In this document: positions 3,227 through 27,578 of the stretch, piece after piece
How the letters are laid out: each line of letters begins with the position of its first letter
Position numbering within the stretch: the first letter of the stretch is position 1
Assembly (NCBI GenBank): GCA_023264445.1
Contig: JAHFMN010000001.1
Span: 69,928 to 133,927, forward strand
DNA length: 64,000 nt
Direction of reading: 5' to 3'
Source of the DNA: Candidatus Kaiserbacteria bacterium
Lineage (GTDB): Bacteria > Patescibacteriota > Minisyncoccia > Phycocordibacterales > Phycocordibacteraceae
Notes under the pieces: generated by a model
Told to the model about the DNA's origin: nothing
What the model saw: the letters and a program-made list of their open reading frames with translations, nothing else
The model's database searches: none
Program-made: the position numbers and the translations under genes

Positions 3227-3292
3227 TCGGTAGCGTATTTTGCCCAAGGTGATAGAGTGCTTGCCAGACCAATAACCGCACAGGAGATGTGT

Positions 3293-3676
3293 ATGCCACG
3301 CAATAAACTTACGATCACCCCGCAGCAGCTCGAAGGAGTGCTGGCAATACTCGGGGTAAAGTTCGTTCCGGTAGAGGGCGAGCCGCTCAAGCCGGACTGC
3401 TATAACGATCATCTGGATTACCACTGTAAGAACAAGGTGACCCAGCATGCGGTCTGCGGCAACGTATCAATCAGGACGTGTTCGGACTCCTATTGCAGGT
3501 TGTTTGCTGCAATTGCCGCCCACTACATGACTCTCCCTATTAGTGCGCAACCACGGTTGCGCCAGGCGCTCGGGAGTATGCGTAAAAGGTCCATCGTGCG
3601 GATACGGGAACCGTACGTTCCAATGGGGCTCGGGAGCCTGCCGAGAAAGTCGGCAGCACGGTCGCGTGTGCGCTGA
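3293..3676 (+). CDS. hypothetical Cys/His-rich protein
   Basis: ORF 3257..3676. AGGAG lies 7 nt before the ATG at 3293. The protein has multiple C/H residues and no recognisable domain. Confidence 0.45.
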
Positions 3677-3696
3677 TTCCTGAAGGCCGGCGTTCC

Positions 3697-3735
3697 TTGA
3701 AAGCCCAGAGCGATCTGGGCTTTCTCTTTTCTTAT
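3697..3735 (+). terminator. rho-independent terminator
   Basis: GAAAGCCCAG-AGCGATC-CTGGGCTTTC hairpin followed by TCTTTTCTT. Confidence 0.6.
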
Positions 3736-3766
3736 AAACTCATGCCCATGAACTTCTTTCAGGATA

Positions 3767-3795
3767 TTGACAAATGTAATTAAGAATGCTATAAA
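3767..3795 (+). promoter_or_regulatory. sigma70-like promoter TTGACA-N17-TATAAA
   Basis: Consensus -35 box, 17-nt spacer and a near-consensus -10 box, followed by the RBS AAAAGGAGG and the TTG start at 3835. Confidence 0.45.
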
Positions 3796-3834
3796 GGAAA
3801 TGGAACACATTTCAAACGAAAAAAGGAGGTTGTC

Positions 3835-4122
3835 TTGTCCACCTACAGTATATCGAAATGGTTTGCCGTCGCTGTTGCAGTCATCGTAGTAATATTGTTG
3901 ATACTGTGCCTGACCGCAATTATGCAGCGCGACGCCTTCAAGAAACAACGGGAAAATCTCTCGACAGCGTATAAATCGCATCTTGCGAACGAATACATCC
4001 ACAACATCTGCAAGATCGAATTCATCGGAGACAGTCCTCGAGTCATCAGCCCTCAGGATGCAGCCTGTGTCGACGGTGTACGGATGCGAGTCGGGAATGA
4101 GGTCGATGCGATAGCAAAATAG
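3835..4122 (+). CDS. small membrane protein (TTG start)
   Basis: Strong RBS AAAAGGAGG 5 nt upstream. One N-terminal TM helix ([22 protein letters not shown]). Terminator downstream. Confidence 0.55.
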
Positions 4123-4153
4123 CAAATAAGTAATGTCGTTCGACCTGCGAATC

Positions 4154-4194
4154 GCGACCGTCTGGAGAAAACCCGGACGGTCGCTTTGTTTTAT
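4154..4194 (+). terminator. rho-independent terminator
   Basis: 9-bp stem GCGACCGTC/GACGGTCGC followed by TTTGTTTTAT. Confidence 0.55.
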
Positions 4195-4255
4195 ATGCGA
4201 ATGAGCCCGTGCTATACTCATACCGTACCTGCCCCGCCATGGGCAGGATTTGGGT

Positions 4256-6910: not shown

Positions 6911-8135
6911 ATTAAATCTGCCGGACGTGCCGGGCGTGTACCTGTTTAAGCAGGGGAGAAATGTGCTGTACGTCGGCAAGGCAACGTCGCTCCGCGACCG
7001 TGTGCGCTCGTATTTCGACGATGACCTTATCGCGACGCGCGGCCCGCGCATCGTAGACATGGTGACGAAGGCCGACCGTATCGCGCACGAAGCGACGCCA
7101 ACTGTCCTTGAGGCGCTCGTGCGCGAGGCGGCGCTCATCAAGCAGTACCTGCCGAAGGCGAATGTGGACGGAAAGGATGATAAGACGTTCCTTTATGCAT
7201 GCATCACCGACGAAGATATTCCGCGCGTGTTGATTATTCGCGGGAAAGACCTGGATTTTAAAACAAAACGCACTAGCGATGGGGAGAAATTAAAAGCGCT
7301 GTATGGTCCTTTTCCATCTGGTACCCAGCTGCGCGAGGGCCTGCGGCTCATACGGCGCATCTTTCCATTTTTTGATACGCCGAAGCCGGTCGGGACGAAG
7401 AGTAAGCACCAAGCGGCAAAGATAGAATTCAATACGCAAATTAAGCAGTATCCGCGCGCGTATGATGCGGCAGAGTATCGCCGTACCATACGCCGCATCA
7501 TGCTTTTCTTGAGCGGCCGCGGGAAAGAGCTACGCGCAACACTTGAGAGGGAAATGAAAACCGCGGCAAAGGAGGAGCGATTTGAAGATGCCGCAGAGGC
7601 GAGGCGCGCACTGTTTGCACTCGACCACATTCAGGACGTCTCACTCATCAAGGATGAGCATTTTGATGAATCGCGCGACAAGCTCACGGGCATGCGCATT
7701 GAGGCGTACGATACCGCTCATCTCTCGGGAACGAACGCTATCGGAGTCATGACGGTTGTAATTGATGGTGCGCCGGTAAAGAGCGAGTATCGCACTTTCC
7801 GCATTCGCGGGATAAAAAAGAATGATGATGTCGCGTCCCTGAAGGAAATTCTCTCGCGCCGCCTGAATCATCCGGAGTGGCCATTGCCGAAGGCAATCGT
7901 CGTAGATGGCGGGAAGACGCAGAAAAAAGCGGCCGAATCGGTATTGAAAGAAGCGGGAGTTGAGATAGTGGTTGCCGCGATAGTGAAGGACGAACGGCAT
8001 CGCCCGCGTGAGGTCATTGGTGCACGGCACGCAGGCATCTCCGAATCAGACGCCGTCCTCGCAAATGCCGAGGCGCATCGCTTCTCGCTTTCTCGACACC
8101 GGAGGGCTCGCTCTCACAGCTTACGCTCAAAATAG
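6888..8135 (+). CDS. uvrC: excinuclease ABC subunit C, short form lacking the C-terminal (HhH)2
   Basis: GIY-YIG N-terminus (GVYLFK...LYVGKA), a UVR motif, and the RNaseH-like endonuclease region. It ends about 415 aa, with no HhH tail. It overlaps the uvrA 3' end. Confidence 0.85.
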   Translation: MQRSELNKLNLPDVPGVYLFKQGRNVLYVGKATSLRDRVRSYFDDDLIATRGPRIVDMVTKADRIAHEATPTVLEALVREAALIKQYLPKANVDGKDDKTFLYACITDEDIPRVLIIRGKDLDFKTKRTSDGEKLKALYGPFPSGTQLREGLRLIRRIFPFFDTPKPVGTKSKHQAAKIEFNTQIKQYPRAYDAAEYRRTIRRIMLFLSGRGKELRATLEREMKTAAKEERFEDAAEARRALFALDHIQDVSLIKDEHFDESRDKLTGMRIEAYDTAHLSGTNAIGVMTVVIDGAPVKSEYRTFRIRGIKKNDDVASLKEILSRRLNHPEWPLPKAIVVDGGKTQKKAAESVLKEAGVEIVVAAIVKDERHRPREVIGARHAGISESDAVLANAEAHRFSLSRHRRARSHSLRSK

Positions 8136-9187: not shown

Positions 9188-9260
9188 GGGCCCGTAGCTC
9201 ACTTGGTAGAGCGCCTCATTTGCAATGAGGAGGTAACCGGTTCGATCCCGGTCGGGTCCA
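9188..9260 (+). tRNA. tRNA-Ala (anticodon UGC)
   Basis: Cloverleaf GGGCCCG acceptor, D arm GCTC/GAGC, anticodon stem CCTCA/TGAGG with loop TTTGCAA, and T arm ACCGG-TTCGATC-CCGGT. It has G3:U70 and A73. CCA is not encoded. Confidence 0.85.
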
Positions 9261-9312
9261 CATACATCTCAGTTAAGTGCGATGCTCCACAGCGGGCTGA
9301 TATACTGCACGC

Positions 9313-10086
9313 ATGGAACTCATCGCAGGAGATAAGGAGCTCGAGGCGCTCAATGCACAATTAGATGACCCGAATCAGTTGCAGGCGTACAAGACTCCGC
9401 ACGACAACTATCATCCGCTCTTCCTTCCGCGTCTTCTCGGCCGCGTCTTGGTCGGCTGCGGGAACCTGGTGTATGGGCATGAGCCGTCGTATCTGAAATT
9501 CCGGTCGATAGAAATCGTCGCGCGCGTGCCATACCAATCATGGTCTTCTGCGGTCTATACGCTCCTCACCATGTTCTATGCCGATGAGCACAAGGCCATA
9601 CGATTCTCAAACGTTTCCCGCTATGCGCGCATCGCGCAAGATAACGAGACGATGCACGTCGTAGTCATCTCCCAGCTTGCGCGCACAGAGGGGAGAGCAG
9701 GGCTCATACGGCATACGCTTCTGCCGATGTTCTTTGCGTTCTTTTATTTCTGGGCATCCTACATCCTCTATCTGATGCGGCCTCGCTGGTCTTTCGAACT
9801 CAATTATCTCTTTGAACAGCACGCATTTGACCAATATAATCGCTTTCTTGAACAGTACCGCGAAGAACTGAAAAAGAAGCCGGCTGAAAGCGAATTCCTC
9901 ACCTGGTACGGGCGCAATCCGCGCTCTCAATTTGAGTTTTTCCAATCCGTCCGCAATGACGAACTGATCCACCGCAATCAGTCCGTCCGTGCGGTGAATA
10001 CAGAAGCGGATGCTTACCGTGTACATTCTTTGAAATTTGTTGCGATTGGCGCTGTTATCGTTCTGCTTGTTCTTATTCTGATATAA
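9313..10086 (+). CDS. alternative oxidase (AOX/PTOX)-like di-iron carboxylate protein with a C-terminal TM helix
   Basis: Segments NETMHV (like NERMHL), RNDELIHRN (like RADEAHHR), FEQHA (like LEEEA) and IEIVARVP match the four AOX iron-ligand helices. A C-terminal hydrophobic helix is present. Confidence 0.6.
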   Translation: MELIAGDKELEALNAQLDDPNQLQAYKTPHDNYHPLFLPRLLGRVLVGCGNLVYGHEPSYLKFRSIEIVARVPYQSWSSAVYTLLTMFYADEHKAIRFSNVSRYARIAQDNETMHVVVISQLARTEGRAGLIRHTLLPMFFAFFYFWASYILYLMRPRWSFELNYLFEQHAFDQYNRFLEQYREELKKKPAESEFLTWYGRNPRSQFEFFQSVRNDELIHRNQSVRAVNTEADAYRVHSLKFVAIGAVIVLLVLILI

Positions 10087-10145
10087 GAAGAAAGTCTCCG
10101 CACGTCTGGGAATCCGGTCCCGCATCTGGTATGGTACGAGCGTGC

Positions 10146-10219
10146 GCGCTCTTAGCTCAGTTGGTTAGAGCGTTCGCCTCACACGCGAAAGGTCATAGGT
10201 TCGAATCCTATAGAGCGCA
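10146..10219 (+). tRNA. tRNA-Val (anticodon CAC)
   Basis: Acceptor GCGCTCT/AGAGCGC, D arm GCTC-AGTTGGTTA-GAGC, anticodon loop CTCACAC, and T arm ATAGG-TTCGAAT-CCTAT. Confidence 0.85.
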
Positions 10220-10236
10220 CAAGAGGTGTTCTATGT

Positions 10237-10307
10237 CGGGCCGGAGTATGCCGGTAGTACATGCGCTTCGGGTGCGTAAGGACCGAGTTCAATTCTCGGC
10301 GGCCCGA
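10237..10307 (+). tRNA. tRNA-Pro (anticodon CGG)
   Basis: Acceptor CGGGCCG/CGGCCCG, anticodon stem TGCGC/GCGTA with loop TTCGGGT, and T arm CCGAG-TTCAATT-CTCGG. The D stem is short (3 bp). Confidence 0.75.
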
Positions 10308-10328
10308 CAAAGAACATCTCTCAAGAGG

Positions 10329-10402
10329 CGGGCTATCGTATACCGGTAGTACGCATGCATGGGGTGCATGTAGACCGGGTTCGATTCCCGGTAGCCCGAC
10401 CA
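10329..10402 (+). tRNA. tRNA-Pro (anticodon GGG), CCA encoded
   Basis: Acceptor CGGGCTA/TAGCCCG, anticodon stem CATGC/GCATG with loop ATGGGGT, and T arm CCGGG-TTCGATT-CCCGG, followed by ACCA. Confidence 0.75.
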
Positions 10403-10430
10403 AATATCGTCATGCTAGAATCGTGCGCAC

Positions 10431-10563
10431 GGGCCATTAGCTCAGCTGGTAAGCCGGTCAAAATCCGAAACCCAGTCCGGCTTCCCGACGGCACTTGCCT
10501 CGCATGAACAATATGAAGACATATGTTCATGCACTCGGCTCGCTTGCCGGTAGAGCGCGTTAT
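10431..10563 (+). pseudogene. tRNA-Ala 5' fragment with a ~100-nt structured insertion in the D-loop
   Basis: 21 nt GGGCCATTAGCTCAGCTGGTA are identical to the 5' end of the tRNA-Ala(CGC) 170 nt downstream. They are followed by a 101-nt insert with two hairpins, then GAGCGCGT matching tRNA positions 22-29. No 3' half or T arm follows. Confidence 0.6.
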
Positions 10564-10600
10564 TGTGATCCTATAGGTTTTCAGTATCCTGTAAGTAATC

Positions 10601-10673
10601 GGGCCATTAGCTCAGCTGGTAGAGCGCGTCATTCGCATTGACGAGGTCAGCGGTTCGACTCCGCTATGGTCCA
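10601..10673 (+). tRNA. tRNA-Ala (anticodon CGC)
   Basis: Acceptor GGGCCAT/ATGGTCC with G3:U70, D arm GCTC-AGCTGGTA-GAGC, anticodon loop TTCGCAT, and T arm AGCGG-TTCGACT-CCGCT. Confidence 0.85.
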
Positions 10674-10698
10674 CTGGGCTTCAAAGGGAAACAATCGC

Positions 10699-10769
10699 GG
10701 GCCTATGGTGAAGCGGTATCACGCGTCCATGGCATGGACGAAGTCGGGGTTCGACTCCCCGTAGGTCCA
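10699..10769 (+). tRNA. tRNA-Ala (anticodon GGC)
   Basis: Acceptor GGGCCTA/TAGGTCC with G3:U70, anticodon stem CGTCC/GGACG with loop ATGGCAT, and T arm CGGGG-TTCGACT-CCCCG. Confidence 0.8.
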
Positions 10770-10822
10770 CAAAAGTACGAAGTAGTTTTGTGGACCTATG
10801 CGCCATGCCTGCGCATGGCGCG
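10762..10822 (+). terminator. two consecutive perfect hairpins after the tRNA array
   Basis: GGTCCACAAAA-loop-TTTTGTGGACC is an 11-bp stem that reuses the tRNA 3' end. GCGCCATGC-CTGC-GCATGGCGC is a 9-bp stem. There is no T-run, so function as a terminator or processing site is uncertain. Confidence 0.35.
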
Positions 10823-15787: not shown

Positions 15788-16732
15788 ATGGATAAACCAA
15801 AAACAACGCCAAAAGATTTCTTCCTGTGGGCCGGGGCGATGGTTGCATTCTATTGGGCCATCATTGCCTACACGTTTCTTATTTTTGATTACATCAACTA
15901 CGCGCTTCCGAACGCACTTACGTATTATCCAAGCGATCCCTATCAGAGCGGCATCAGCTACGAAATGGCTTCAGTAATCGTTCTCCTACCGCTCTATATG
16001 TTCCTCATGCAGCTCATTCGTCGTGGCATTGTTCTCGATGCGTCCCGTAAAGAAATCTGGGTGCGCCGCTGGGCGCTCATTCTCACGCTCTTCGTCGCCG
16101 GCGTGGCGATAGCAGGAGACCTCATCACGCTTCTCACCACCTTCCTCAATGGGGAAGAACTCACGATGGCATTCATTCTCAAAGTGCTCACCATCTTCCT
16201 TATTGCAGCAGGAGTCTTCATGCACTTTACTGCGGACCTCAAGGGATACTGGGAGCTGTTTCCAAGCCGAAAACGTCTCCTTGGTGTCAGCGTCGGAATG
16301 CTCGCACTCGGCACGATTGTCGCAGGCTTCTTCATCGTAGGTACGCCGGCCGAAGCACGTCTTGCGCGCTTTGACACACAGAAGGTAAACGATTTGCAGA
16401 ACATACAGTCGCAAGTCGTGTACTACTGGCAGGCGAAGCAGCAACTGCCGATGACGATCACTGACCTCAATAACTCTCTCTCCTACGGCCCAGTACCGGT
16501 GGATCCCCAGACAGGGAAGTCGTACGTCTACCAAACGGTCGGGGCACTCTCCTTCAAGCTGTGTGCAGTGTTTAACGCAGAAAGCCGCACAGGTGTCATG
16601 CCCATCGAAAACCGCCCGATTCCGGTAGGGGAGAAGGGTCTCCCGGATAATTGGCAACATGACGCCGGTCAGGTGTGTTTCGACCGGACTATCGATCCGA
16701 GCTTCTATCCACCGCTCACGAAGCAGCTGTAA
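15788..16732 (+). CDS. hypothetical membrane protein (N-terminal multi-TM region plus C-terminal soluble domain)
   Basis: Six predicted TM helices followed by a domain of about 110 aa. No confident family assignment. Confidence 0.6.
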   Translation: MDKPKTTPKDFFLWAGAMVAFYWAIIAYTFLIFDYINYALPNALTYYPSDPYQSGISYEMASVIVLLPLYMFLMQLIRRGIVLDASRKEIWVRRWALILTLFVAGVAIAGDLITLLTTFLNGEELTMAFILKVLTIFLIAAGVFMHFTADLKGYWELFPSRKRLLGVSVGMLALGTIVAGFFIVGTPAEARLARFDTQKVNDLQNIQSQVVYYWQAKQQLPMTITDLNNSLSYGPVPVDPQTGKSYVYQTVGALSFKLCAVFNAESRTGVMPIENRPIPVGEKGLPDNWQHDAGQVCFDRTIDPSFYPPLTKQL

Positions 16733-16755
16733 CAGCCGGTTACGGTATCGGCCAC

Positions 16756-19590
16756 ATGGCGTACGACCACACAGAGATCGAGAAAGCAGCCCGAGAGAAA
16801 TGGGCCAGTCTTAATCTCTACACGGTCGACTTCTCTGATAATGTAAAAGACCCGTATTATCTCCTTGTCGAGTTCCCGTACCCCTCGGGTGATCTCCATA
16901 TCGGGCATTGGTACGCGTTTGCGGTGACCGACATCTATGCGCGCATGCTGCGCGCGCGGGGAAAGAATGTTCTGTTCCCAATCGGATTCGATGCGTTCGG
17001 ACTGCCCGCGGAAAATGCAGCTATCAAGAATGGCCTTGATCCGAAGGAGTGGACGTATAAGAACATGGAACGCATGCGGCAGCAGCTGACAACGATGGGC
17101 CCGTCATTTGATTGGTCAAAAGAAGTTGTGACCTGCGAACCGGGGTACTACCAGTGGACGCAGTGGCTCTTCGTGAAGCTTTTTGAGCAAGGACTTGCCG
17201 AGCATCGTGAAGCAGCAGTCAAATGGTGTCCGAAGGATCAGACGGTGCTTGCAAACGAACAGGTCATCGACGGCTGCTGTGAGCGCTGTAGTACGCCAGT
17301 GGAAGAGAAAAGACTGACGCAGTGGTTCCTCAAGATTACCGACTATGCCGAGCGACTCCTCACCGGTCTCGATGCGCTCCCATGGCGCGAAGAGATAAAG
17401 GAAGCACAGCGTGCATGGATAGGGAAAAGCGAAGGCGCGTATCTGGAATTTCCAATCGTTGGTCGCGATGAGAAGATTAAGGTCTTCACAACGCGTCCCG
17501 ACACGGTGTTCGGTGCCACGTATGCAGTGCTTGCGCCGGAGCACGCGCTTGTCTCGGCGCTGTTGCCTGCTATTTCAAATAAAAAAGAAGTTGAAGCATA
17601 TGTGCATGCCACTGCACAGAAGACTGAACGAGAACGTAGTGAAAACAAAGAGAAGACCGGTGTGAAGCTCGAAGGAGTGAACGCGGTACATCCCGCAACA
17701 AATGAGGAAATTCCAATTTTCGTCGCCGATTATGTCATAGGTTCGTATGGCACCGGCGCGCTGATGGCAGTCCCAGCACACGATGAGCGAGATAGTGAGT
17801 TTGCACAAAAAATGGGCATACCCGTTCGTCAAGTTATTGCACCGCGGTATCACCAGACGACTGAGCCAGGAATCTATCGGCCGGAGGAACCGACCACAGA
17901 AAAAGACGGCATCATCGTCCTCATCAAACACTGGAAGGAAGAGAAATACCTCGGTCTCAAGTGGAAAGAGGTCGCATGGGGAACCCTACTCACCGGCGGT
18001 GTTGACGAGGGACTCACGCCAGAAGAAACGGTGTTCAAAGAAATCAAGGAGGAAACAGGATATCTGCACCTACAGATCAAACAGAAATTCGGAGTCGTCG
18101 ATGGACTCTTCTATCACGTACCGAAGCAGAAGAATCAGCATGTACACGGGCATATGTTTTATGTCGAGCTGAAAGATGGCGAGCAAGAAGCCATCAGCAA
18201 GGACGAATCTTCAAAACACGACCTAGTCTGGCTCACGGTAGAAGAATTGGAAACATTCCTTACGCCCGATACGCACAAACACACCTTGAATCTATTCCGT
18301 AACGGGCCGCAACCGTACACCGGAAATGGCTCTCTTGTCAGTTCGGGCGAATTTTCCGGCCGCGAGAGTGAAGATGCAAAATGGGAGATTGTGAAGCATG
18401 TCGGCGGAGAAAAGACCACTCAATATCGCATTCGGGATTGGCTCGTTTCCCGCCAGCGATACTGGGGATGTCCTATACCGATTGTCTATGATCCTGAAGG
18501 GAAGCCGCGTCCGATCCCGAAGGAGCATCTGCCGTGGCTTCTGCCAACCGATGTAGACTTCACGCCCACCGGCAAGGCGCCACTTGCGTCTTCAAAGGAA
18601 TTGCAGGAGCGCGTGACGAAGCTATTCGGCGAAGGATGGACGCCAGAATACGACACGCTCGATACCTTCGTTGATTCCTCCTGGTACTTCCTCCGCTATC
18701 TTGATCCGAAAGATCTGCATGATTTCTCGGATGCAGCTCTTATGAAGAAATGGATGCCGGTCAACCGATACTCGGGCGGGAGCGAACACACGACGATGCA
18801 CCTTCTCTATGCTCGGTTCTTTACGAAAGCGCTCTATGACCTCGCACTCGTGCCCGTGGATGAGCCGTTTACCGAACGTTTCAATCGCGGACTCATCATG
18901 GGTCCCGATGGACAAAAAATGAGCAAGTCAAAAGGGAACGTCGTGAATCCGGATGAATTTGTGCAGAAATATGGCGCAGATGCCGTACGGCTTTTCCTCG
19001 CTTTCATCGGCCCGTATAACGAACCGGGAAGTTATCCATGGAGCTTGGAAGGCGTTGCTTCCATGCGTAAATTCCTTGAGCGCGTTATGCGCCTCACGGA
19101 ACGGGCTCAAGACGTATCCGAAGTGGGTAATGAACTGCAGCAGGCGATTGCACGGGCAAGCATAAAGGTCTCCAAAGACGGTGATCGATTTAAATTCAAT
19201 ACCGGCGTTGCAGCACTCATGATTCTCGTCAACGAACTTGAAGCTTCCGTAGCTGTGCCAAAAACTGCATTGAGTTCTTTCCTCGTCATGCTCGCTCCTT
19301 TTGCGCCTCATATCGCTGAATACCTATGGGAGAAACTCGGAGGAGAAGGGAGTATCCACCAGCAGGCGTGGCCAGTGTTTGACGCGAGCACTCTTGTCGA
19401 GAGTTCAGCGGAAGTTGTGGTTCAGGTCAACGGCAAGCGGCGTGGCTCGCTCACCCTCGCCACCGATATTTCCGAGGAGGAAGCCGTTCGTGCTGCACGT
19501 GCGCTTCCCGCTGCCGCCGCGGCGCTTGCCGGAAAGGATCCTTCGCGCACCGTATATGTCCCGGGGAAAATCATCAATCTGGTCGGATAA
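16756..19590 (+). CDS. leuS: leucyl-tRNA synthetase carrying an inserted Nudix-hydrolase-like domain
   Basis: HIGH (HIGHWYAF), the CP1 editing domain (TTRPDT...MAVPAHDERD), RDWLVSRQRYWG and KMSKS. In addition there is a ~150-aa insert between the AHDERD motif and SSGEFSG that contains a Nudix box GGVDEGLTPEETVFKEIKEETGY. Confidence 0.92.
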   Translation: MAYDHTEIEKAAREKWASLNLYTVDFSDNVKDPYYLLVEFPYPSGDLHIGHWYAFAVTDIYARMLRARGKNVLFPIGFDAFGLPAENAAIKNGLDPKEWTYKNMERMRQQLTTMGPSFDWSKEVVTCEPGYYQWTQWLFVKLFEQGLAEHREAAVKWCPKDQTVLANEQVIDGCCERCSTPVEEKRLTQWFLKITDYAERLLTGLDALPWREEIKEAQRAWIGKSEGAYLEFPIVGRDEKIKVFTTRPDTVFGATYAVLAPEHALVSALLPAISNKKEVEAYVHATAQKTERERSENKEKTGVKLEGVNAVHPATNEEIPIFVADYVIGSYGTGALMAVPAHDERDSEFAQKMGIPVRQVIAPRYHQTTEPGIYRPEEPTTEKDGIIVLIKHWKEEKYLGLKWKEVAWGTLLTGGVDEGLTPEETVFKEIKEETGYLHLQIKQKFGVVDGLFYHVPKQKNQHVHGHMFYVELKDGEQEAISKDESSKHDLVWLTVEELETFLTPDTHKHTLNLFRNGPQPYTGNGSLVSSGEFSGRESEDAKWEIVKHVGGEKTTQYRIRDWLVSRQRYWGCPIPIVYDPEGKPRPIPKEHLPWLLPTDVDFTPTGKAPLASSKELQERVTKLFGEGWTPEYDTLDTFVDSSWYFLRYLDPKDLHDFSDAALMKKWMPVNRYSGGSEHTTMHLLYARFFTKALYDLALVPVDEPFTERFNRGLIMGPDGQKMSKSKGNVVNPDEFVQKYGADAVRLFLAFIGPYNEPGSYPWSLEGVASMRKFLERVMRLTERAQDVSEVGNELQQAIARASIKVSKDGDRFKFNTGVAALMILVNELEASVAVPKTALSSFLVMLAPFAPHIAEYLWEKLGGEGSIHQQAWPVFDASTLVESSAEVVVQVNGKRRGSLTLATDISEEEAVRAARALPAAAAALAGKDPSRTVYVPGKIINLVG

Positions 19591-19638: not shown

Positions 19639-20718
19639 ATGAAAAAGACACGTTCGAGCACTGCGCATGCAAAGGGGCGGACTGTCCCCAGTACCTCGTT
19701 TTCTTTTGATGCTGCGACGCTTGCGAAGCGTCTTCTTGCTGCAGCTCCAGAACGTTCTCGAGAGGTCCTTACTCGCCGCTTCGGTCTCGGTGCTTCTCCC
19801 GAGCGCGAGACTCTCGAGGCAATCGGGGATCGCTCGAGCATCACGCGCGAGCGCGTACGGCAGATCGAAGCAGCTGGCCTCGATGCGATACGCTCAAGCA
19901 AAGTTTTCAAAGAAGCCGCTACTGCTTTTGATGAAATTGCAAAATACATCCATTCGCTTGGTGCCATCGTGCCTGAAGAGACTCTCCTTTCCGCGCTCGG
20001 TAAGGATGAAAAGAACCGCAATCGTTTCCGCTTCTTCCTCATGGTCAATGCAGCATTTTTCCGCGAACGTGAGACGAACGATTTCCTCGCGCGCTGGCAC
20101 GTGGATCATACGACGGCAAAGCATATCCACTCGGCACTGACGCGGCTCTATTCTTCGCTTTCTGATACCGACGTTGTTACCGAAGGAGAACTTCTTGACC
20201 GTTTTCTTGATGAACTCAAAGAGGTAAATGATGCGTACAAGAATGAAGAGGTGCTGAAGCGCTGGCTCTCGCTCTCCAAGCACATCGGCAGTAATCCGCT
20301 CACGCAATGGGGCCGTGTCACGGCACCTGCTATCCGCATCAAGGGCGTTCGCGATTACGCGTATCTTGCCGTAAAGCGTCATGGCACCCCGATGCATTTC
20401 TCTGAAGTGGCGAAGACCATCGGCGCGCTGTTCTCCAAGAAGGCGCATATTGCGACGACGCACAACGAGCTCATCAAGGATCCACGCTTCGTGCTGGTCG
20501 GTCGCGGACTCTATGCACTTACCGAATGGGGCTATACGCCGGGCGTCGTACGCGACGTCATCCGCGAGACGCTCGAGGAGAAGGGACCGATGAAAAAGGA
20601 GGAAATCATCAAACATGTGAAGAAGGCACGTTTCGTGAAGGACAACACCATTCTGGTCAATTTGAATGATTCTCGTTACTTCAAACGCATGAAGGACGGT
20701 CGTTACGCGGCAGTCTAA
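19639..20718 (+). CDS. regulatory protein with an N-terminal sigma-70 region-4-like HTH and a C-terminal HARE-HTH domain
   Basis: TLEAIGDRSSITRERVRQIEAAGLDAIR resembles region 4.2. The C-terminal HFSEVAKTIGALF...FVLVGRGLYALTEWGY resembles HARE-HTH, as in the RpoE delta subunit N-terminus. Confidence 0.6.
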   Translation: MKKTRSSTAHAKGRTVPSTSFSFDAATLAKRLLAAAPERSREVLTRRFGLGASPERETLEAIGDRSSITRERVRQIEAAGLDAIRSSKVFKEAATAFDEIAKYIHSLGAIVPEETLLSALGKDEKNRNRFRFFLMVNAAFFRERETNDFLARWHVDHTTAKHIHSALTRLYSSLSDTDVVTEGELLDRFLDELKEVNDAYKNEEVLKRWLSLSKHIGSNPLTQWGRVTAPAIRIKGVRDYAYLAVKRHGTPMHFSEVAKTIGALFSKKAHIATTHNELIKDPRFVLVGRGLYALTEWGYTPGVVRDVIRETLEEKGPMKKEEIIKHVKKARFVKDNTILVNLNDSRYFKRMKDGRYAAV

Positions 20719-20815: not shown

Positions 20816-22180
20816 ATGCTGCCGTTCTTCGAATGGGTGACAGATCTACGAGATACGATTACCGGTACATTTGGCCTCCGCTTCCATCCGTGGCCGATTT
20901 TCATACTCGGCCTTGCACTCCTCGTCGTGTCATACCTCTTCATGCCGGATGCGGTCTCTCTCGCTTTTTCAATCGCGCTTTTCCTCGCACCTCTGTGGCT
21001 ACCGTTCCTGCTCGTGAACGCAGCACTCATGCTCTGGCTTATCTTGAAACAAGGAGAGTTCATCTCATCCCAGAAATATCTTTTGCTTGAAATAAAGCCG
21101 CCACGAAACTTGGTGAAGACTCCGCTCGCAATGGAAGCTTTCCTATCTACATTGCACATAGGCCCCGGTGAGAGTACGTGGTATGTACGGTGGATGAAAG
21201 GTGCTCTGCGCCCGTGGTGGTCGCTTGAGATAGCGTCGTTCGAAGGTCAGGTCCATTTCTTCATATGGACGCGAGCCAACTTCCGCCGCATGATTGAGAC
21301 GCAGATATATGCGCAGTATCCGGGCGCGCAGATAGTCGAGGCGCCCGACTATACACGACTTATCAGCGGGACAATAGAAGATTTTGGTATCTGGGGCTGT
21401 GATTTTAAACACACTAACGCAACGCCACTTCCCATCAAAACATATATTGAATACGGGCTTGACCAGGTGCAGAAGGAGCCGGAACAGGTCGATCCGCTTG
21501 CAAACCTCATTGAATTTATGGGTTCAGTGGGCAAGGGTGAATACCTCTGGCTCCAGATGATATTCCGCCAACATAAGGGAGAGCGATACGGGAAACTCAA
21601 CGAAAAAGGTAAAGCGTATACGTGGACCGATGAGGCAAAAGAGATGATCGATAAGATACGCAAGGAAACTCGCGAACCGTATGTGGATCCTATGACCGGT
21701 AAAGAGATGCCGGGATTTCCGAGTCCGACGAAAGGGCAGGCAGAGAAAATTGCAGCTATCGAACGCAATGTTTCGAAACAGGGTTTTGATGTCGGCATCC
21801 GCTGCATCTATCTTGCGAAGAAGGATTCATTCAATCCTATCGTCATCACCCAGATGAACGGGCTTTTCAATCCCTTCAACTCACTAGGATGGAACGGCAT
21901 TGGAGCGGCCGAATGGCTCCGGCATTTCGATGACTATCCATGGGAAATCGGTGTGGAAAAAAAGAAGGACCTGTATCGTCGCAAACTCGTTGAAGCGTTT
22001 CGCCGTCGTCAGTTCTTCCATGAACCGTTTTCTTTTGGTGTTGCGCCGAAAGATATCATGGTCATGAGCACGGAAGAGCTTGCGACCGTCTACCATATAC
22101 CTTCGCGTGCCGTCGAGACGCCAGGCCTCACGCGCATCCAGTCAGCGACGAGCGAAGCGCCTCCGAACCTGCCGACCTAA
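20816..22180 (+). CDS. hypothetical membrane protein (2 N-terminal TM helices plus a ~380-aa soluble domain)
   Basis: Long ORF with no Walker motif or recognisable family. The TATACT -10 box is immediately upstream (leaderless). Confidence 0.6.
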   Translation: MLPFFEWVTDLRDTITGTFGLRFHPWPIFILGLALLVVSYLFMPDAVSLAFSIALFLAPLWLPFLLVNAALMLWLILKQGEFISSQKYLLLEIKPPRNLVKTPLAMEAFLSTLHIGPGESTWYVRWMKGALRPWWSLEIASFEGQVHFFIWTRANFRRMIETQIYAQYPGAQIVEAPDYTRLISGTIEDFGIWGCDFKHTNATPLPIKTYIEYGLDQVQKEPEQVDPLANLIEFMGSVGKGEYLWLQMIFRQHKGERYGKLNEKGKAYTWTDEAKEMIDKIRKETREPYVDPMTGKEMPGFPSPTKGQAEKIAAIERNVSKQGFDVGIRCIYLAKKDSFNPIVITQMNGLFNPFNSLGWNGIGAAEWLRHFDDYPWEIGVEKKKDLYRRKLVEAFRRRQFFHEPFSFGVAPKDIMVMSTEELATVYHIPSRAVETPGLTRIQSATSEAPPNLPT

Positions 22181-23150: not shown

Positions 23151-24080
23151 ATGGATATACGAGGAAAGAAGATATTCATAGGGCTGTCGGGGGGCGTGGA
23201 CTCGGCCGTATCTGCAGCGCTTTTACAGCGTACAGGAGCGCGCGTGACAGGTGTCTACATCAAGGGATGGTACCCGCCTGGGATGCCCTGCACCTGGGCC
23301 GCGGAGCGTCGCGATGCAATGCGGGTGGCGGCGCGGCTCCACATCCCATTCCTTACGCTAGACGCAAGCATGGAATACAAGAAGGGAGTCATTGACTATC
23401 TGCTTGCGGAATATCGCGCAGGTCGGACGCCGAATCCGGACGTCATGTGCAATAAGGATGTGAAGTTTGGTGCATTTTATCGCTTCGCAAAAGAGCAGGG
23501 AGCCGATGCTATTGCAACCGGACACTACCGCAGTGGAGAAAAAGACCAGAGCTATTTCCTCTGGGCCGTGCCGAAAGACATTTTGGAAACAACGATATTT
23601 CCCATTGGTCATATGGAGAAGATCGAGGTGCGCAGACTCGCAAAGAAATGTAATCTGCCGGTTGCCGAAAAGAAGGATAGTCAAGGAGTTTGTTTCCTTG
23701 GTTCCGTGTCAATCGAAGATTTCTTGAAGCAGGAATTTGGAAGCGATAATCCAGCTCTCCTCTACACGATAGGGCAGCGAGTCCCACTGCCGGATGGTCC
23801 ATGGTACGCCGTTGGGAAGGATGTTGGAAAAAAAGAAATCAAGGTTTCAAAGATGCGTATACCTGCTACGCAGGAAGCATGTTTTACTAGCCAAAATTGG
23901 TTTGGCGACCCGGCAGATGTACACGAAGCACAGTATCGCTATCGGGGCCCACATATAGAGGGTCATATAGAAGGGAATCGGTTTATAAGCACTAAACCGA
24001 TTCCGGATATTCCGGCGCCCGGTCAATCACTCGTTTTCTATCGTGATGGCAAATTAATTGGCGGGGGAATTATTGTGTAA
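23151..24080 (+). CDS. mnmA: tRNA-specific 2-thiouridylase MnmA
   Basis: PP-loop GLSGGVDSAV, NPDVMCNKDVKFG, and a 309-aa body. Confidence 0.88.
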   Translation: MDIRGKKIFIGLSGGVDSAVSAALLQRTGARVTGVYIKGWYPPGMPCTWAAERRDAMRVAARLHIPFLTLDASMEYKKGVIDYLLAEYRAGRTPNPDVMCNKDVKFGAFYRFAKEQGADAIATGHYRSGEKDQSYFLWAVPKDILETTIFPIGHMEKIEVRRLAKKCNLPVAEKKDSQGVCFLGSVSIEDFLKQEFGSDNPALLYTIGQRVPLPDGPWYAVGKDVGKKEIKVSKMRIPATQEACFTSQNWFGDPADVHEAQYRYRGPHIEGHIEGNRFISTKPIPDIPAPGQSLVFYRDGKLIGGGIIV

Positions 24081-24105: not shown

Positions 24106-24519
24106 ATGACGTATTCACGGCTCTGGGTGATGGCAGCTATCATTGCCGGCATCATCCTCATCGGTTTCGTGCTTTCGGTGCCGCATACCCGCGAGATTCC
24201 CGGCGCATCACTTTCGGAGAGCACTACCCCACATATCTCAAGTGTCTCCCTGCACGATTCTTTCAAGAAGGGGCTCCACACCATCACTGGATCTATTGAA
24301 GTACCAAATGCATGTGCGTCGGTCATCGCCGAGGCCTCACTCACCGGAGAGGCGTCTACAACCAGTAGAATCCTCGTAGCGATCTTATTGCCGGAAGATA
24401 CCGGCGTCTGCCTGCAAGTGCCGACTGTCATGCACTTCTCGACGACAATTAGTGCACCAGCAGGCCTTCCAATTGAAGCGACGGTCAATGGTATTGCTGC
24501 CACCACGAGTGTGTCATGA
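24106..24519 (+). CDS. membrane-anchored hypothetical protein (first gene of a five-gene overlapping operon)
   Basis: N-terminal TM helix plus a ~100-aa exported domain. Its stop overlaps the next start (ATGA). Confidence 0.5.
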   Translation: MTYSRLWVMAAIIAGIILIGFVLSVPHTREIPGASLSESTTPHISSVSLHDSFKKGLHTITGSIEVPNACASVIAEASLTGEASTTSRILVAILLPEDTGVCLQVPTVMHFSTTISAPAGLPIEATVNGIAATTSVS

Positions 24520-25385
24520 ACGGCTTACCTGTCATCGTAAAGGCCGATGGAACGAAGCAGGTATTTGACCCAATGCGTCTGATCGTTTCACTGCGCCGAG
24601 CGGGTGCAGGAGAGCACACGGCAGAACAGATTGCACACGTCATCACCGAGACACTTGTGCCCGGTACGAGCTCGAAAGAGATTTATGCCCGCGCCTTTGC
24701 GCTTCTGCGCAAAGAAGCACGACCCGTTGCCGCACGGTATGCGCTTCGCCGTGCGCTTCTGGAGCTTGGTCCCACTGGGCATCCTTTTGAGGATTTCATT
24801 TCGCATTTATTTCGAGCGGAGGGGTGGCAGGTTGAGACGCGGAAAATCATCCGTGGAGCATGTGTCGCGCACGAAGTTGACCTCTATGCATCGCACGAAG
24901 AGCAGAACACGTTTCTCGCCGCCGAGCTTAAGTATCATAATGATCCGGGCTATAAGACCGATCTGAAAGTTGCGCTCTACGTGAAGAGTCGTTTCGATGA
25001 CATCTTCTCATGCGATCCAACCGTGCGCGCTTGCCCGATTGACCGGGGATTGCTCGTCACGAATACCAAGTTCACCTCAGAAGCAATCGCATATGCCGAG
25101 TGTGCAGGTGTGGAGCTCCTCGGCTGGAGCTACCCGGCGCACGATAATCTCTTCCTGCGCATGAGTCGCGCGGCGGTGTACCCAATCACCACTTTGACCG
25201 GTCTCTCGCACGCTGAGAAACGGCTTCTCATCGAGCGCGGTATCATCGCTGTTGACGACATCATGCAGGATCGCCGCACGCTCGACCCCATCCATCTCTC
25301 GAGTGAGCGAATTGGAGAGGTTCTTGCCGAGATTGATGGTCTCCTTAGGCTTCCTCTGGTGCCGCATGATATTGTTCCCGTATGA
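24516..25385 (+). CDS. ATP-cone domain fused to an Mrr-type restriction-endonuclease (PD-(D/E)XK) domain
   Basis: N-terminal VIVKADGTKQVFDPMRLIVSL is ATP-cone-like, as in NrdR or RNR. The C-terminal HLFRAEGWQVE...HEVDL...AAELKYH carries the D...ExK catalytic triad of the Mrr catalytic domain. Confidence 0.65.
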   Translation: MNGLPVIVKADGTKQVFDPMRLIVSLRRAGAGEHTAEQIAHVITETLVPGTSSKEIYARAFALLRKEARPVAARYALRRALLELGPTGHPFEDFISHLFRAEGWQVETRKIIRGACVAHEVDLYASHEEQNTFLAAELKYHNDPGYKTDLKVALYVKSRFDDIFSCDPTVRACPIDRGLLVTNTKFTSEAIAYAECAGVELLGWSYPAHDNLFLRMSRAAVYPITTLTGLSHAEKRLLIERGIIAVDDIMQDRRTLDPIHLSSERIGEVLAEIDGLLRLPLVPHDIVPV

Positions 25386-25858
25386 TGCAGCGCTTTTCAA
25401 CAACTTCCTTCATTCTTGGAGTGATGTTCGGAGCTCTTGTCTCAGCTGCGTGGTTTCTAAATGGTCCTACTGGACTCACCCCTTTCTCCAGCTCGCCTTT
25501 TCTTGCTACGACAGTTGATTCCTTGCTGCCGCAAAGTAGTGCAATAATCGTGGCCGATCAGTCTGCTGGCCCAAGCGTCACTATTGAGTCGGTGACCATA
25601 CCATCACTTCCCATCTGGGTTGCCGTACTTGAGACGAATGGTCACGAATTAGGGAACGTGCTTGGTGCCGCACGCATTCTTGGTTCGCACAGCAGTATCA
25701 CTGTCACACTCCTGCGGGCGACCGAGCCAAATCGTACGTACGCAGTCGAACTCTATCGGGATGACAATTACGGCGTTTTTGATCCGTCAGAGAACAGTGT
25801 CTACGTAGATTTCGATACCGGTATGCGCGCGGTTTCCTACTTCACGACCACTCCCTAG
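25382..25858 (+). CDS. membrane-anchored hypothetical protein (possible paralogue of the 24106 gene)
   Basis: N-terminal TM helix plus an exported beta-rich domain. ATGA overlap with the upstream gene. Confidence 0.5.
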   Translation: MMQRFSTTSFILGVMFGALVSAAWFLNGPTGLTPFSSSPFLATTVDSLLPQSSAIIVADQSAGPSVTIESVTIPSLPIWVAVLETNGHELGNVLGAARILGSHSSITVTLLRATEPNRTYAVELYRDDNYGVFDPSENSVYVDFDTGMRAVSYFTTTP

Positions 25859-25859
25859 C

Positions 25860-26648
25860 ATGGCTTCAAAATTCAGCCGCAGCGGCCCGTTTGACCCGTC
25901 TTCGCCAGAACCGTTTAAGGTAAGTCGTTCTAAAATAGATTTATTCTCTGAGTGCCAGCGATGCGCGTATCTGGATATGAAATTGGGGGTGAGACGCCCC
26001 TCGATGCCCGCCTTCACACTCAACAACGCGGTGGATGAACTCTTGAAGCGGGAGTTTGACATCCATCGTGCGAATGCCAGTAAGCATCCGCTCGTTGAGA
26101 AGTACGGTCTTGATGCCGTACCGCTTGATGATGAGCGGATGGAAGAGTGGCGTGACGCTTTGCGGCGCGGTATTGCGTACCTCCACGCGCCGACGAATAT
26201 CTTAGTGCGCGGTGGCATTGACGACGTATGGGTTAATCCAGAAGGGGAGTTCATCATCGTGGATTACAAGGCGACAAGTAAAAAGGTGGGACCAAGCACA
26301 GAGGACGATTTATACGATTCGTACAAGCGGCAGCTGGAGATTTATCAGTGGCTCTTTCGTCAGAATGGCTTCAAGGTCTCGCCGACGGTGTACTTTGTGT
26401 ACGTAAACGGGAAATCCGATGCAAAGGCGTTCGATGGAAAACTTGAATTCGATGTGGAGCTCATTCCATACACGGGAAGCGATGCGTGGGTCGAGCCCGC
26501 AATCTATGACCTGAAGGAGATGCTCATGAGCGACGATATACCGCCGGTCGGGAAGGCATTTGGCGGCGGCCCCTGCGACTACTGCACGTATCGTGAGAGT
26601 GCTGGTAAAATCCTTCTTGATTTGCATACCAAAAATAAAAAGAAATGA
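25860..26648 (+). CDS. PD-(D/E)XK nuclease with a Cas4/AddB-like four-cysteine Fe-S motif
   Basis: The N-terminus SKIDLFSECQRCAYLD is like Cas4 (S.S.L..Y..CPR..YL). Catalytic motifs VDYK and QLEIYQW are present, with a C-terminal CDYC. No cas neighbours and no CRISPR array. Confidence 0.6.
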   Translation: MASKFSRSGPFDPSSPEPFKVSRSKIDLFSECQRCAYLDMKLGVRRPSMPAFTLNNAVDELLKREFDIHRANASKHPLVEKYGLDAVPLDDERMEEWRDALRRGIAYLHAPTNILVRGGIDDVWVNPEGEFIIVDYKATSKKVGPSTEDDLYDSYKRQLEIYQWLFRQNGFKVSPTVYFVYVNGKSDAKAFDGKLEFDVELIPYTGSDAWVEPAIYDLKEMLMSDDIPPVGKAFGGGPCDYCTYRESAGKILLDLHTKNKKK

Positions 26649-26908
26649 GAAAGTCATTTGCCGATTACGTGCGAGACGCCGTGCGCCAGATTCCGAAAGG
26701 GCAGACCCGCACCTATGGCGAGGTTGCGAGAGTCATCGGCCATCCCGGCGCCGCGCGCGCCGTTGGTACCATCATGAAAAATAATTATGACCCCAGTGTG
26801 CCGTGTCATCGAGTCATCAAGAGCGATGGCACTATCGGTGATTACAATCGAGGCGGTTCTGCAAAAAAGCGCTCTCTTTTGAAAGCCGAGGGAGTGAGAG
26901 GAATATAG
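26645..26908 (+). CDS. ogt: minimal methylated-DNA--protein-cysteine methyltransferase (DNA-binding/active-site domain only)
   Basis: The PCHRVI active-site motif and a TYGEVA...HTH-like region. 87 aa. ATGA overlap with the upstream gene. Confidence 0.75.
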   Translation: MRKSFADYVRDAVRQIPKGQTRTYGEVARVIGHPGAARAVGTIMKNNYDPSVPCHRVIKSDGTIGDYNRGGSAKKRSLLKAEGVRGI

Positions 26909-26910
26909 CA

Positions 26911-27578
26911 ATGGAAGTGAAAATCGAGTCATCGTGGAAAGACAAATTGCATGTCGAATTTGAACAGGATTATTTTGCACAGCTCACGAGCTTTATAAAA
27001 AGGAATATCAAGAAGGGAAGGTGTACCCGGCGCCGAAGAATATCTTCCGCGCCTTCGACCTTTGTCCTTTTGGTAAGGTAAAAGTCGTTATTCTGGGACA
27101 AGACCCGTACCATGGGGCGCGACAGGCCAACGGTCTTTCATTCGCTGTTGATGCAAATGAAGTGGTTCCACCCTCGCTTAAAAATATATTTAAAGAGATA
27201 GGAAGCGACTTTGGCAAGCCGCTCGTGCATACCGACGGCGATCTCTCGCGTTGGGCGAAGCAGGGCGTCTTGCTCCTGAACGCGACGCTGACCGTGCGAG
27301 CCGGCGCTGCCGGCTCGCACCAGGAGAAGGGCTGGGAACAATTTACCGATGCCATTATCCGCGCGCTTTCCGAGGAACGCGGACATCTGGTCTTTATGCT
27401 CTGGGGCAATTACGCAAAGGCGAAGGGCGCGCACATCGACCGAAGCAAGCACCTCGTGCTTGAAGCGCCGCATCCATCGCCGTTTTCCGCCGCTTCCGGC
27501 TTCTTCGGCTGTAAACACTTCAGCAAGGCCAACGAGTACCTCATCGCCAATGGAGAGACACCAATAGACTGGTTGTAG
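26911..27578 (+). pseudogene. ung: uracil-DNA glycosylase (family 1) with a frameshift in an A5 run
   Basis: The N-terminal 29 codons (MEVKIESSWKDKLHVEFEQDYFAQLTSFI) are in one frame. The rest (EYQEGKVYPAPKNIF...VVILGQDPYHG...HPSPLSA) is in the +1 frame. The join is at AAAAA 26997-27001; one extra A would restore a ~222-aa Ung. Confidence 0.7.

Follow-up and report, generated by a model that had tools for sequence, protein, structure and literature searches.

An ATP-cone/PD-(D/E)XK/helix-hairpin-helix protein at a conserved Patescibacteria locus: a candidate nucleotide-gated DNA endonuclease

Three domains and a conserved hinge

The 64,000-nucleotide stretch of the Candidatus Kaiserbacteria contig JAHFMN010000001.1 analyzed here (positions 69,928 to 133,927, forward strand; "the window" below) carries a gene for a 289-amino-acid (aa) protein that joins an ATP-cone, a PD-(D/E)XK nuclease domain, and a predicted helix-hairpin-helix (HhH) domain. 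The gene was delimited from the list of open reading frames (ORFs) and its translation, and it lies exactly where an original prediction, made from the DNA letters without database searches, had placed it. An identical protein with the same neighbors is recorded in public assemblies. The features of the gene are as follows.

24516..25385, plus strand: whole gene, ATP-cone/PD-(D/E)XK/HhH protein, 289 aa, ATG start, TGA stop
24528..24761, plus strand: ATP-cone domain, residues 5-82, a beta-hairpin lid (E6-8, E14-16) and four helices
24762..24791, plus strand: hinge ELGPTGHPFE, residues 83-92, with the catalytic-helix glutamate E92 (24789-24791) as its last residue
24792..25160, plus strand: PD-(D/E)XK nuclease core, residues 93-215, with D122 (24879-24881), E137 (24924-24926), and K139 (24930-24932)
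25161..25346, plus strand: C-terminal helical domain, residues 216-277, AF1548-like_C, predicted DNA-binding domain of HhH type
25347..25382, plus strand: disordered C-terminal tail ending in HDIVPV; predicted local distance difference test score (pLDDT) dropping to 62 over the final block, with residues 287-289 under 50

When the protein was scanned against Pfam as a single sequence, it matched Mrr_cat (PF04471) with 25.4 bits (cut-off, 21), ATP-cone (PF03477) over residues 6-79 with 23.8 bits (curated cut-off, 25.8), and AF1548-like_C weakly (12.9), while NCBIfam returned no meaningful match. At the family level, in 49 diverse full-length relatives (31-45% identity), the ATP-cone model matched all 49 at E ≤ 0.01 (best E = 3.3e-10), Mrr_cat matched 46, and AF1548-like_C matched 31. 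The ATP-cone that had been called from the sequence is therefore slightly under the cut-off in the window protein itself and present in every relative scanned, and its proposed pairing with an intact PD-(D/E)XK domain of the Mrr_cat group holds, both in Pfam and in the conserved residues described below.

A first structure model, built on an alignment of 36 close relatives (75-83% identity), was poor (pLDDT 67, with the C-terminal domain below 50). A second, AlphaFold2 (AF2) model used an 82-sequence diverse alignment, with diverse sequences taken from a profile search, and reached a pLDDT of 93.1 and a predicted TM-score (pTM) of 0.89; these values indicate that the three domains sit in a defined arrangement relative to one another. 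Both folds named in the original prediction were recovered, including the beta-hairpin lid over a four-helix bundle that defines the ATP-cone. The description as a two-domain protein was nevertheless incomplete, since it overlooked the third domain (AF1548-like_C, residues ~216-277). The structural matches of the model, with their scores, were the following.

AF1548 (PDB accession no. 1Y88): 19.2, nuclease and C-terminal domain
NucS repair endonuclease, second best: 10.3, 26% identity over 105 residues, nuclease
AspBHI: 9.7, nuclease
NrdR: 8.6 and 8.4, ATP-cone
NrdB bearing an ATP-cone: 8.3, ATP-cone
Card1: 8.2, nuclease
Rad51 N-terminal domains, RuvA, Pol X, and NusA AR2: 5.8-6.9, C-terminal domain

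Because its ~60 ordered residues resemble the proteins in the last row, the C-terminal domain is predicted to be a DNA-binding domain of the HhH type. The disordered tail that follows it, HDIV(S/P)V, is kept only in the gene's own clade and not in the wider family, and a docking motif is a possible explanation for its conservation.

The closest relative, AF1548 of Archaeoglobus fulgidus, is a structural-genomics protein of unknown function. Residues 94-274 match it by sequence (E = 2.6e-22, or 2.6e-52 with the family profile), so that the homology spans both the nuclease and the C-terminal domain. AF1548 is archaeal and has no ATP-cone, its 199-residue chain being aligned from its residue 22-23 (PMC1874628; PMC1821046). 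It has been placed in the Mrr_cat group of PD-(D/E)XK enzymes (PMC3424549), and its residues D38, E51, and K53, which correspond to D122, E137, and K139 here, superpose on the catalytic residues of type II restriction enzymes (PMC1874628; PMC1821046).

Residue invariance was scored in the 82 sequences, down to ~35% identity. The invariant residues are K9, F17, S25, Y75, G85, P86, G88, F91, E92, G114, C116, H119, E120, D122, E137, K139, H141, K151, L154, Y155, R159, D162, N183, T184, C196, W204, P207, and P223. They include D122 in the motif HEVD and E137 and K139 in the motif AELK, which are the two motifs on which the call of a Mrr_cat core with catalytic residues had rested; E92, the usual helix-1 acidic residue of the nuclease fold; and, as further nuclease residues, H119, E120, H141, R159, D162, N183, T184, C116, and C196. 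To judge from these residues, the catalytic site of the nuclease is intact. Inactivated nuclease folds typically lose catalytic residues, and an inactive nuclease was rejected on the invariance of E92, D122, E137, and K139.

The label "Mrr-type restriction endonuclease" is correct for the group of the catalytic domain only. Neither the protein nor any of its 49 relatives has a Pfam match to Mrr_N or SRA, the N terminus is the ATP-cone, and the closest relative is AF1548; a classical Mrr enzyme, which would carry the Mrr_N winged helix or an SRA domain as its reader of modified DNA, was thus rejected.

Two cysteines, C116 and C196, are invariant across the whole family and also present in AF1548, and the gene's own clade adds invariant C166 and C173 (the cysteines span 24861-25103). 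A metal site is a possible explanation.

To examine the ligand-binding side of the ATP-cone, we mapped its residues by aligning a hidden Markov model to Escherichia coli NrdA, comparing the NrdA contact positions K9, R10, E15, K21, T55, and H59, and by using the nucleotide contacts published for NrdR, namely, K53, E59, F61, K65, and L66 (bioRxiv 10.1101/2025.03.28.645925). The equivalents in the window protein are listed here.

NrdA K9 and NrdR K53: K9
NrdA R10: A10
NrdA E15 and NrdR E59: Q15 (Glu in more than 90% of the clade)
NrdR F61: F17
NrdA K21 and NrdR K65: R21 (Lys in the wider family)
NrdR L66: L22
NrdA T55: S53 (Thr in the wider family)
NrdA H59: Y57

Across the family, K9, G12, F17, K21, T53, I56, and Y57 are at least 95% conserved, the same holds for the equivalents of NrdA K9, K21, and T55 and of NrdR K53, F61, K65, and L66, and Glu is the majority residue at position 15. 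Such conservation is the pattern that ligand binding would maintain. The original prediction had named the loss of either the nucleotide-binding residues of the cone or the D/ExK triad as what would speak against it. The triad is not lost and the cone is mostly kept, but the equivalents of R10, H59, and E15 are replaced by Ala, Tyr, and Gln, respectively. Since most of the positions that contact the adenine nucleotide are retained, gating of the nuclease by nucleotides, as suggested at the outset, is a reasonable reading of the sequence. No other ATP-cone was found within the 64-kb window.

The hinge, ELGPxGxPFE across the family, is the most conserved segment of the protein, with a mean top-residue frequency of 0.88, compared to 0.60 in the cone, 0.63 in the nuclease, and 0.54 in the HhH domain. 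Its residues G85, P86, G88, F91, and E92 are invariant, and it joins the last helix of the cone to the catalytic helix bearing E92. In ribonucleotide reductases (RNRs) and in NrdR, the last cone helix helps to hold the nucleotide phosphates. The hinge is likely the route of allosteric coupling between cone and nuclease.

Distribution and genomic neighborhoods

An exhaustive HMMER scan of 1.84 billion representative proteins yielded 1046 clusters (at 50% identity) with E ≤ 1e-3 and 390 with E ≤ 1e-30; nearly all of the best 150 of the 1046 clusters are 270-310 aa long and align from end to end. A GTDB scan of one genome per species, for which the species count is a lower bound, found the full architecture in at least 598 species of Patescibacteria and Bacteroidota. 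Among the Patescibacteria with the gene are Paceibacteria, Kaiser-, Adler-, Zambryski-, Nomura-, and Taylorbacteria as well as further groups; a copy was also present on one Chlamydiota plasmid. As the original prediction had stated, the architecture already exists in databases, where the family is annotated as "ATP cone domain-containing protein" or "restriction endonuclease." The architecture itself is hence not new; what is new is its recognition as a three-domain, vertically inherited, and probably allosteric nuclease.

In the window, the start codon of the gene overlaps the stop codon of a 137-aa membrane-protein ORF in an ATGA at 24516-24519, and its stop codon overlaps the start of a 158-aa DUF7282 ORF in a second ATGA at 25382-25385. 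Given these overlaps at both ends, the gene is probably translated as part of an operon. Its neighbors are as follows.

23151..24080, plus strand: MnmA, conserved upstream neighbor, Pfam tRNA_Me_trans
24106..24519, plus strand: 137-aa membrane protein, no Pfam match
25382..25858, plus strand: 158-aa DUF7282 membrane protein, directly downstream of the gene in 20 loci
25860-26648, plus strand: Cas4-like PDDEXK_1 protein (Pfam, PADLOC), at most three genes downstream in 34 loci
26645-26908, plus strand: 87-aa MGMT domain, PCHR motif kept
27021-27578, plus strand: uracil-DNA glycosylase, family 1

The last three, a stand-alone Cas4-like PDDEXK_1 protein, an MGMT-type protein, and a uracil-DNA glycosylase, form a compact repair string (25860-27578, plus strand) directly downstream.

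ORFs were called in 80 loci and their neighbors were clustered; the gene was located in 77 of these. Patescibacteria have a nearly fixed string of leucyl-tRNA synthetase (LeuRS), a sigma70-r4/HARE-HTH protein, a 454-aa membrane protein of unknown function, MltG, MnmA, the ATP-cone protein, DUF7282 or MgtC, Cas4-like PDDEXK_1, uracil-DNA glycosylase, and alanyl-tRNA synthetase (AlaRS). In 55 of the 77 loci, MnmA is found no more than three genes upstream, and in 43 it is the immediate upstream neighbor. When identical genome pairs are compared, the ATP-cone protein has a median pairwise identity of 45%, close to that of MnmA (46.6%) and LeuRS (44%), with MltG at 42%, AlaRS at 52.6%, and PDDEXK_1 at 56%; by this measure, the gene evolves like a housekeeping gene in Patescibacteria. 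As an independent test, we used 80 metagenome loci anchored on PDDEXK_1. Here, 26 of 41 loci had a different context without MnmA nearby, and in all 14 scorable loci with MnmA upstream, the ATP-cone gene lay between MnmA and PDDEXK_1 (37-78% identity). The window as a whole is core chromosome, with genes for UvrB, UvrA, and UvrC, YchF, LeuRS, AlaRS, DnaK, and glutamyl-tRNA synthetase.

Outside Patescibacteria, the surroundings are of another kind. In Bacteroidota, one to five universal stress protein (Usp) genes typically precede the ATP-cone gene and a beta-CASP/RMMBL metallo-hydrolase follows it (nine loci), with P-type cation ATPases, a 500-aa protein of the thymidine-phosphorylase family, a Prs-like kinase, PPK2, type II GAPDH, and lactate dehydrogenase (LDH) nearby. 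A cassette of the ATP-cone gene, the beta-CASP MBL hydrolase, the thymidine-phosphorylase-family protein, and Prs is shared by Pontibacter, Criblamydia, and Owenweeksia; Adhaeribacter has a P-type ATPase between the ATP-cone gene and the hydrolase. The cassette loci in our set are L082 (1972-6597), L083 (7995-12602), L036, and L081. The four-gene cassette is identical on a Pontibacter plasmid and on a Criblamydia (Chlamydiota) plasmid, where it lies between phosphoketolase/GlgP and acetate kinase, and overall it is surrounded by genes for Usp, P-type ATPases, PPK2, LDH, phosphoketolase, and acetate kinase. No beta-CASP, thymidine-phosphorylase-family, Prs, PPK2, or Usp gene was found in the window or in the Patescibacteria loci, which hold one P-type ATPase (in locus L014).

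In several loci outside Patescibacteria (L084, 6711-10478; L087, 7001-10014; L081, 8001-11523), the stop codon of the ATP-cone gene and the start of a P-type cation ATPase gene overlap. In L084 and L085, an ArsR-type regulator gene overlaps the start of the ATP-cone gene, giving the order ArsR, ATP-cone protein, P-type ATPase inside copper/metal-resistance islands.

Candidate functions

Three folds, intact catalytic residues, most of the nucleotide-contacting residues, an invariant hinge, and vertical, housekeeping-like inheritance come together in this protein. We consider the chances about even that it is a cytoplasmic, nucleotide-gated DNA endonuclease of three modules that serves repair or nucleic-acid turnover. 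In such an enzyme, the N-terminal ATP-cone would bind an adenine nucleotide (ATP and/or dATP), the PD-(D/E)XK domain of the AF1548/Mrr_cat group would cut DNA with its complete E-D-ExK metal site, and the Rad51-N/RuvA-like HhH domain would hold the DNA without sequence specificity. By analogy with RNRs and NrdR, occupancy of the cone would alter the hinge, the oligomeric state, or both and thereby switch cleavage on or off, so that DNA repair, recombination, or nucleic-acid turnover would be tied to the ATP/dATP status of the cell. Outside Patescibacteria, the cassette with Prs and the Usp, P-type ATPase, PPK2, LDH, and acetate kinase genes around it speak for such a tie to nucleotide or energy status. 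Ligand binding, gating, the substrate, and the direction of control are all points that we infer.

It is tempting to go further and to picture a DNA endonuclease that is fixed in the chromosome and licensed by a functional ATP/dATP sensor, which would be a core gene in Patescibacteria and the entry enzyme of a starvation/hypoxia nucleic-acid-recycling cassette in Bacteroidota and Chlamydiota. Patescibacteria are reported to depend on salvaged nucleotides. This more complete picture is tentative, and we would rather doubt it than rely on it.

Several observations weigh against a nucleotide-gated DNA endonuclease. The cone of the window protein scores just below the Pfam cut-off, it has Ala and Tyr at the equivalents of NrdA R10 and H59, and it has Q15 where more than 90% of its own clade has Glu. 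Literature searches found no characterized ATP-cone nuclease and no biochemical data on any member, which agrees with the statement in the original prediction that the architecture has no characterized function. The choice of DNA over RNA as the substrate draws only on the HhH domain and the repair neighbors. The gene order in Patescibacteria may be frozen synteny without functional coupling. Outside Patescibacteria, the gene looks accessory, and its contexts are mixed: it lies in islands of stress or metal-resistance genes, on two plasmids, and close to an integrase and an IS5 element. Finally, many relatives of the nuclease fold are defense effectors (Card1, Can2, MspJI, and the nuclease domain of ZorD).

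The replaced R10 and H59 equivalents would fit a protein in which the cone serves only as an oligomerization or docking module and the nuclease is a constitutive, structure-specific repair or recombination enzyme, i.e., a resolvase of Holliday junctions or an endonuclease acting on flaps or mismatches, in the manner of Hjc, NucS, or XPF. The combination of a nuclease with an HhH domain, the rank of NucS as second-best structural match, and the repair neighbors (Cas4-like nuclease, MGMT, uracil-DNA glycosylase) point in the same direction, and some members match the Hjc and UPF0102 Pfam models or carry source names such as "Holliday junction resolvase-like." However, a cone that binds no ligand would hardly keep the adenine-contacting K9, F17, K21, and T/S53 in at least 95% of the family, position 15 is Glu in the majority of members and in more than 90% of the gene's own clade, and E. 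coli NrdR likewise has no Arg at the R10 position and yet binds nucleotides (bioRxiv 10.1101/2025.03.28.645925). We regard a constitutive nuclease as unlikely.

The neighborhoods in Bacteroidota and Chlamydiota bring up a more specific version of nucleotide gating, with another substrate and another role. Here, the protein would be a starvation- or hypoxia-induced catabolic nuclease, possibly acting on RNA, which at low ATP would break RNA or DNA down to mononucleotides for the thymidine/AMP-phosphorylase-family enzyme and Prs, for salvage or energy. The cassette of the ATP-cone gene, beta-CASP/RMMBL hydrolase, thymidine-phosphorylase-family, and Prs genes is conserved across both phyla amid Usp, P-type ATPase, PPK2, LDH, phosphoketolase, and acetate kinase genes, and this context resembles experimentally defined loci of hypoxia and dormancy, the hypoxia-induced Burkholderia lxa locus and the DosR regulon, where genes for Usps, a cation ATPase, an RNase that depends on metal, and acetate kinase are present (PMC3721108). 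The resemblance is, however, one of gene content and gene names and not of tested homology, and the paper on the lxa locus mentions no ATP-cone protein, thymidine phosphorylase, or Prs (PMC3721108). Apart from the single P-type ATPase in L014, the cassette and stress genes are absent near the gene in the window and in 55 Patescibacteria loci, and duplex DNA is the substrate suggested by the HhH domain and by the AF1548/NucS-like fold. We regard a catabolic nuclease of this kind as rather improbable.

Phage defense was the role that the original prediction found attractive, with a sensor of phage-induced changes in deoxynucleoside triphosphate (dNTP) pools. Such an effector of defense or abortive infection would sense changes in dNTPs or ATP through its cone and release a nonspecific nuclease onto phage or host DNA. 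A sensor joined to a PD-(D/E)XK nuclease does follow the logic of known effectors, the nuclease domain resembles those of Card1, Can2, Cdn1, NucC, MspJI, and ZorD, and in some Bacteroidota and Chlamydiota the gene lies on accessory islands or plasmids near an integrase or insertion sequence (IS) element. Nevertheless, a tblastn search of 50,697 phage genomes gave no match, one of 72,556 plasmids gave only two copies, IMG/VR held no relative, and a BFVD structure search returned single-domain matches and no full-length match. PADLOC-DB v2 had no significant match to the protein (best E = 0.04), its matches in relatives were local (residues ~88-205, to the nuclease domains of the ZorD and CARF_PDDEXK models), and no defense model covered more than the nuclease domain. 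Among the neighbors in the window, only the Cas4-like nuclease matched defense models, and no CRISPR locus is present beside it. No recurrent methyltransferase, cyclase, toxin-antitoxin, or other known defense gene stood beside the ATP-cone gene in the neighborhoods examined, and no oligonucleotide cyclase was found in ~90 neighborhoods. Together with the absence from phages and IMG/VR, the local PADLOC matches, and the lack of recurrent defense neighbors, the fixed position between MnmA and repair genes, the housekeeping-rate divergence in Patescibacteria, and the near-uniform length and architecture, without the diversification typical of defense genes, leave the phage-sensing idea unsupported. 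The protein does not qualify as a classical restriction enzyme, and we assign little likelihood to a role as a phage-defense effector.

A catalytically silent, NrdR-like regulator, whose nuclease fold and HhH domain would only bind DNA in response to nucleotides, is very improbable, since E92-D122-E137-x-K139 plus H119, E120, and H141 are invariant over the whole family, even though NrdR shows that a cone can drive DNA binding via oligomerization (bioRxiv 10.1101/2025.03.28.645925) and inactive restriction-endonuclease folds exist, such as Pfam NA-iREase1, which five members match weakly.

Returning to a nucleotide-gated DNA endonuclease, the protein would belong to two known kinds at once, PD-(D/E)XK nucleases gated by a ligand sensor and proteins regulated by an ATP-cone, and it differs from the known examples of both. 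NrdR, a repressor of RNR genes, shares the cone, but there the cone is C-terminal and the effector is an N-terminal zinc ribbon, whereas here the cone starts at residue 5 and the effector would be the nuclease with the HhH domain. Neither Pfam nor the AF2 model gave a zinc ribbon in the protein, and no link to RNR genes appeared in any neighborhood examined. The activity-site cones of RNRs (NrdA, NrdD, and Leeuwenhoekiella NrdB) have the same fold, and the equivalents of NrdA K9, K21, and T55 are kept, but that of R10 is Ala or Ser, that of H59 is Tyr, and the regulated enzyme is unrelated. Compared to the type IV, modification-dependent enzymes Mrr, MspJI, and AspBHI, the reader domain (Mrr_N or SRA) is absent, an ATP-cone and an HhH domain take its place, and the distribution is housekeeping-like rather than defense-like. 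Card1, Can2, Cdn1, NucC, and Cap4 sense, through CARF or SAVED domains, cyclic oligonucleotides made by a partner cyclase, whereas the ATP-cone has no such partner, would read ordinary ATP/dATP, and stands in a context that is not one of defense. The N-terminal DNA-binding domain of NucS/EndoMS is absent here, and the resemblance to XPF/Mus81/Hef is an analogy of layout only.

In the literature searched, ATP-cones are understood experimentally only in RNRs and NrdR, where they turn the ATP/dATP ratio into a change of oligomeric state. The same sensor stands here on an intact nuclease in a widespread family, which spans at least 598 species and, at 50% identity, over 1000 clusters. If gating holds true, it would constitute a third functional class of ATP-cone regulation, extend this regulation to DNA cleavage, and make DNA repair or nucleic-acid turnover responsive to nucleotide pools or energy status. 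Since Patescibacteria, which are poorly understood, conserve the gene in synteny, a defined activity would annotate thousands of genomes and also assign the AF1548 structural-genomics fold its first function. At 289 aa, the protein is small, and its structure is predicted with high confidence, which makes it directly testable in vitro.

Other genes of the window

Upstream in the syntenic string, the LeuRS gene (16675-19590, plus strand; 971 aa) encodes a NUDIX domain (PF00293, residues 410-531, E = 1.2e-11) inserted right after the editing domain. The following gene, for a protein with sigma-70 region 4 and a HARE-HTH domain (19639-20718, plus strand), is the most conserved one of the syntenic block, with a median pairwise identity of 58.8%. 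The 454-aa membrane protein (20816-22180, plus strand) has no Pfam match and, in 44 Patescibacteria loci, occupies the same conserved position, with the sigma4/HARE-HTH gene on one side and MltG on the other. Farther upstream, a cluster of six tRNA genes (9188-10770, plus strand), for Ala-TGC, Val-CAC, Pro-CGG, Pro-GGG, Ala-CGC, and Ala-GGC, is located downstream of the genes for UvrB, UvrA, and UvrC (1142-8135).

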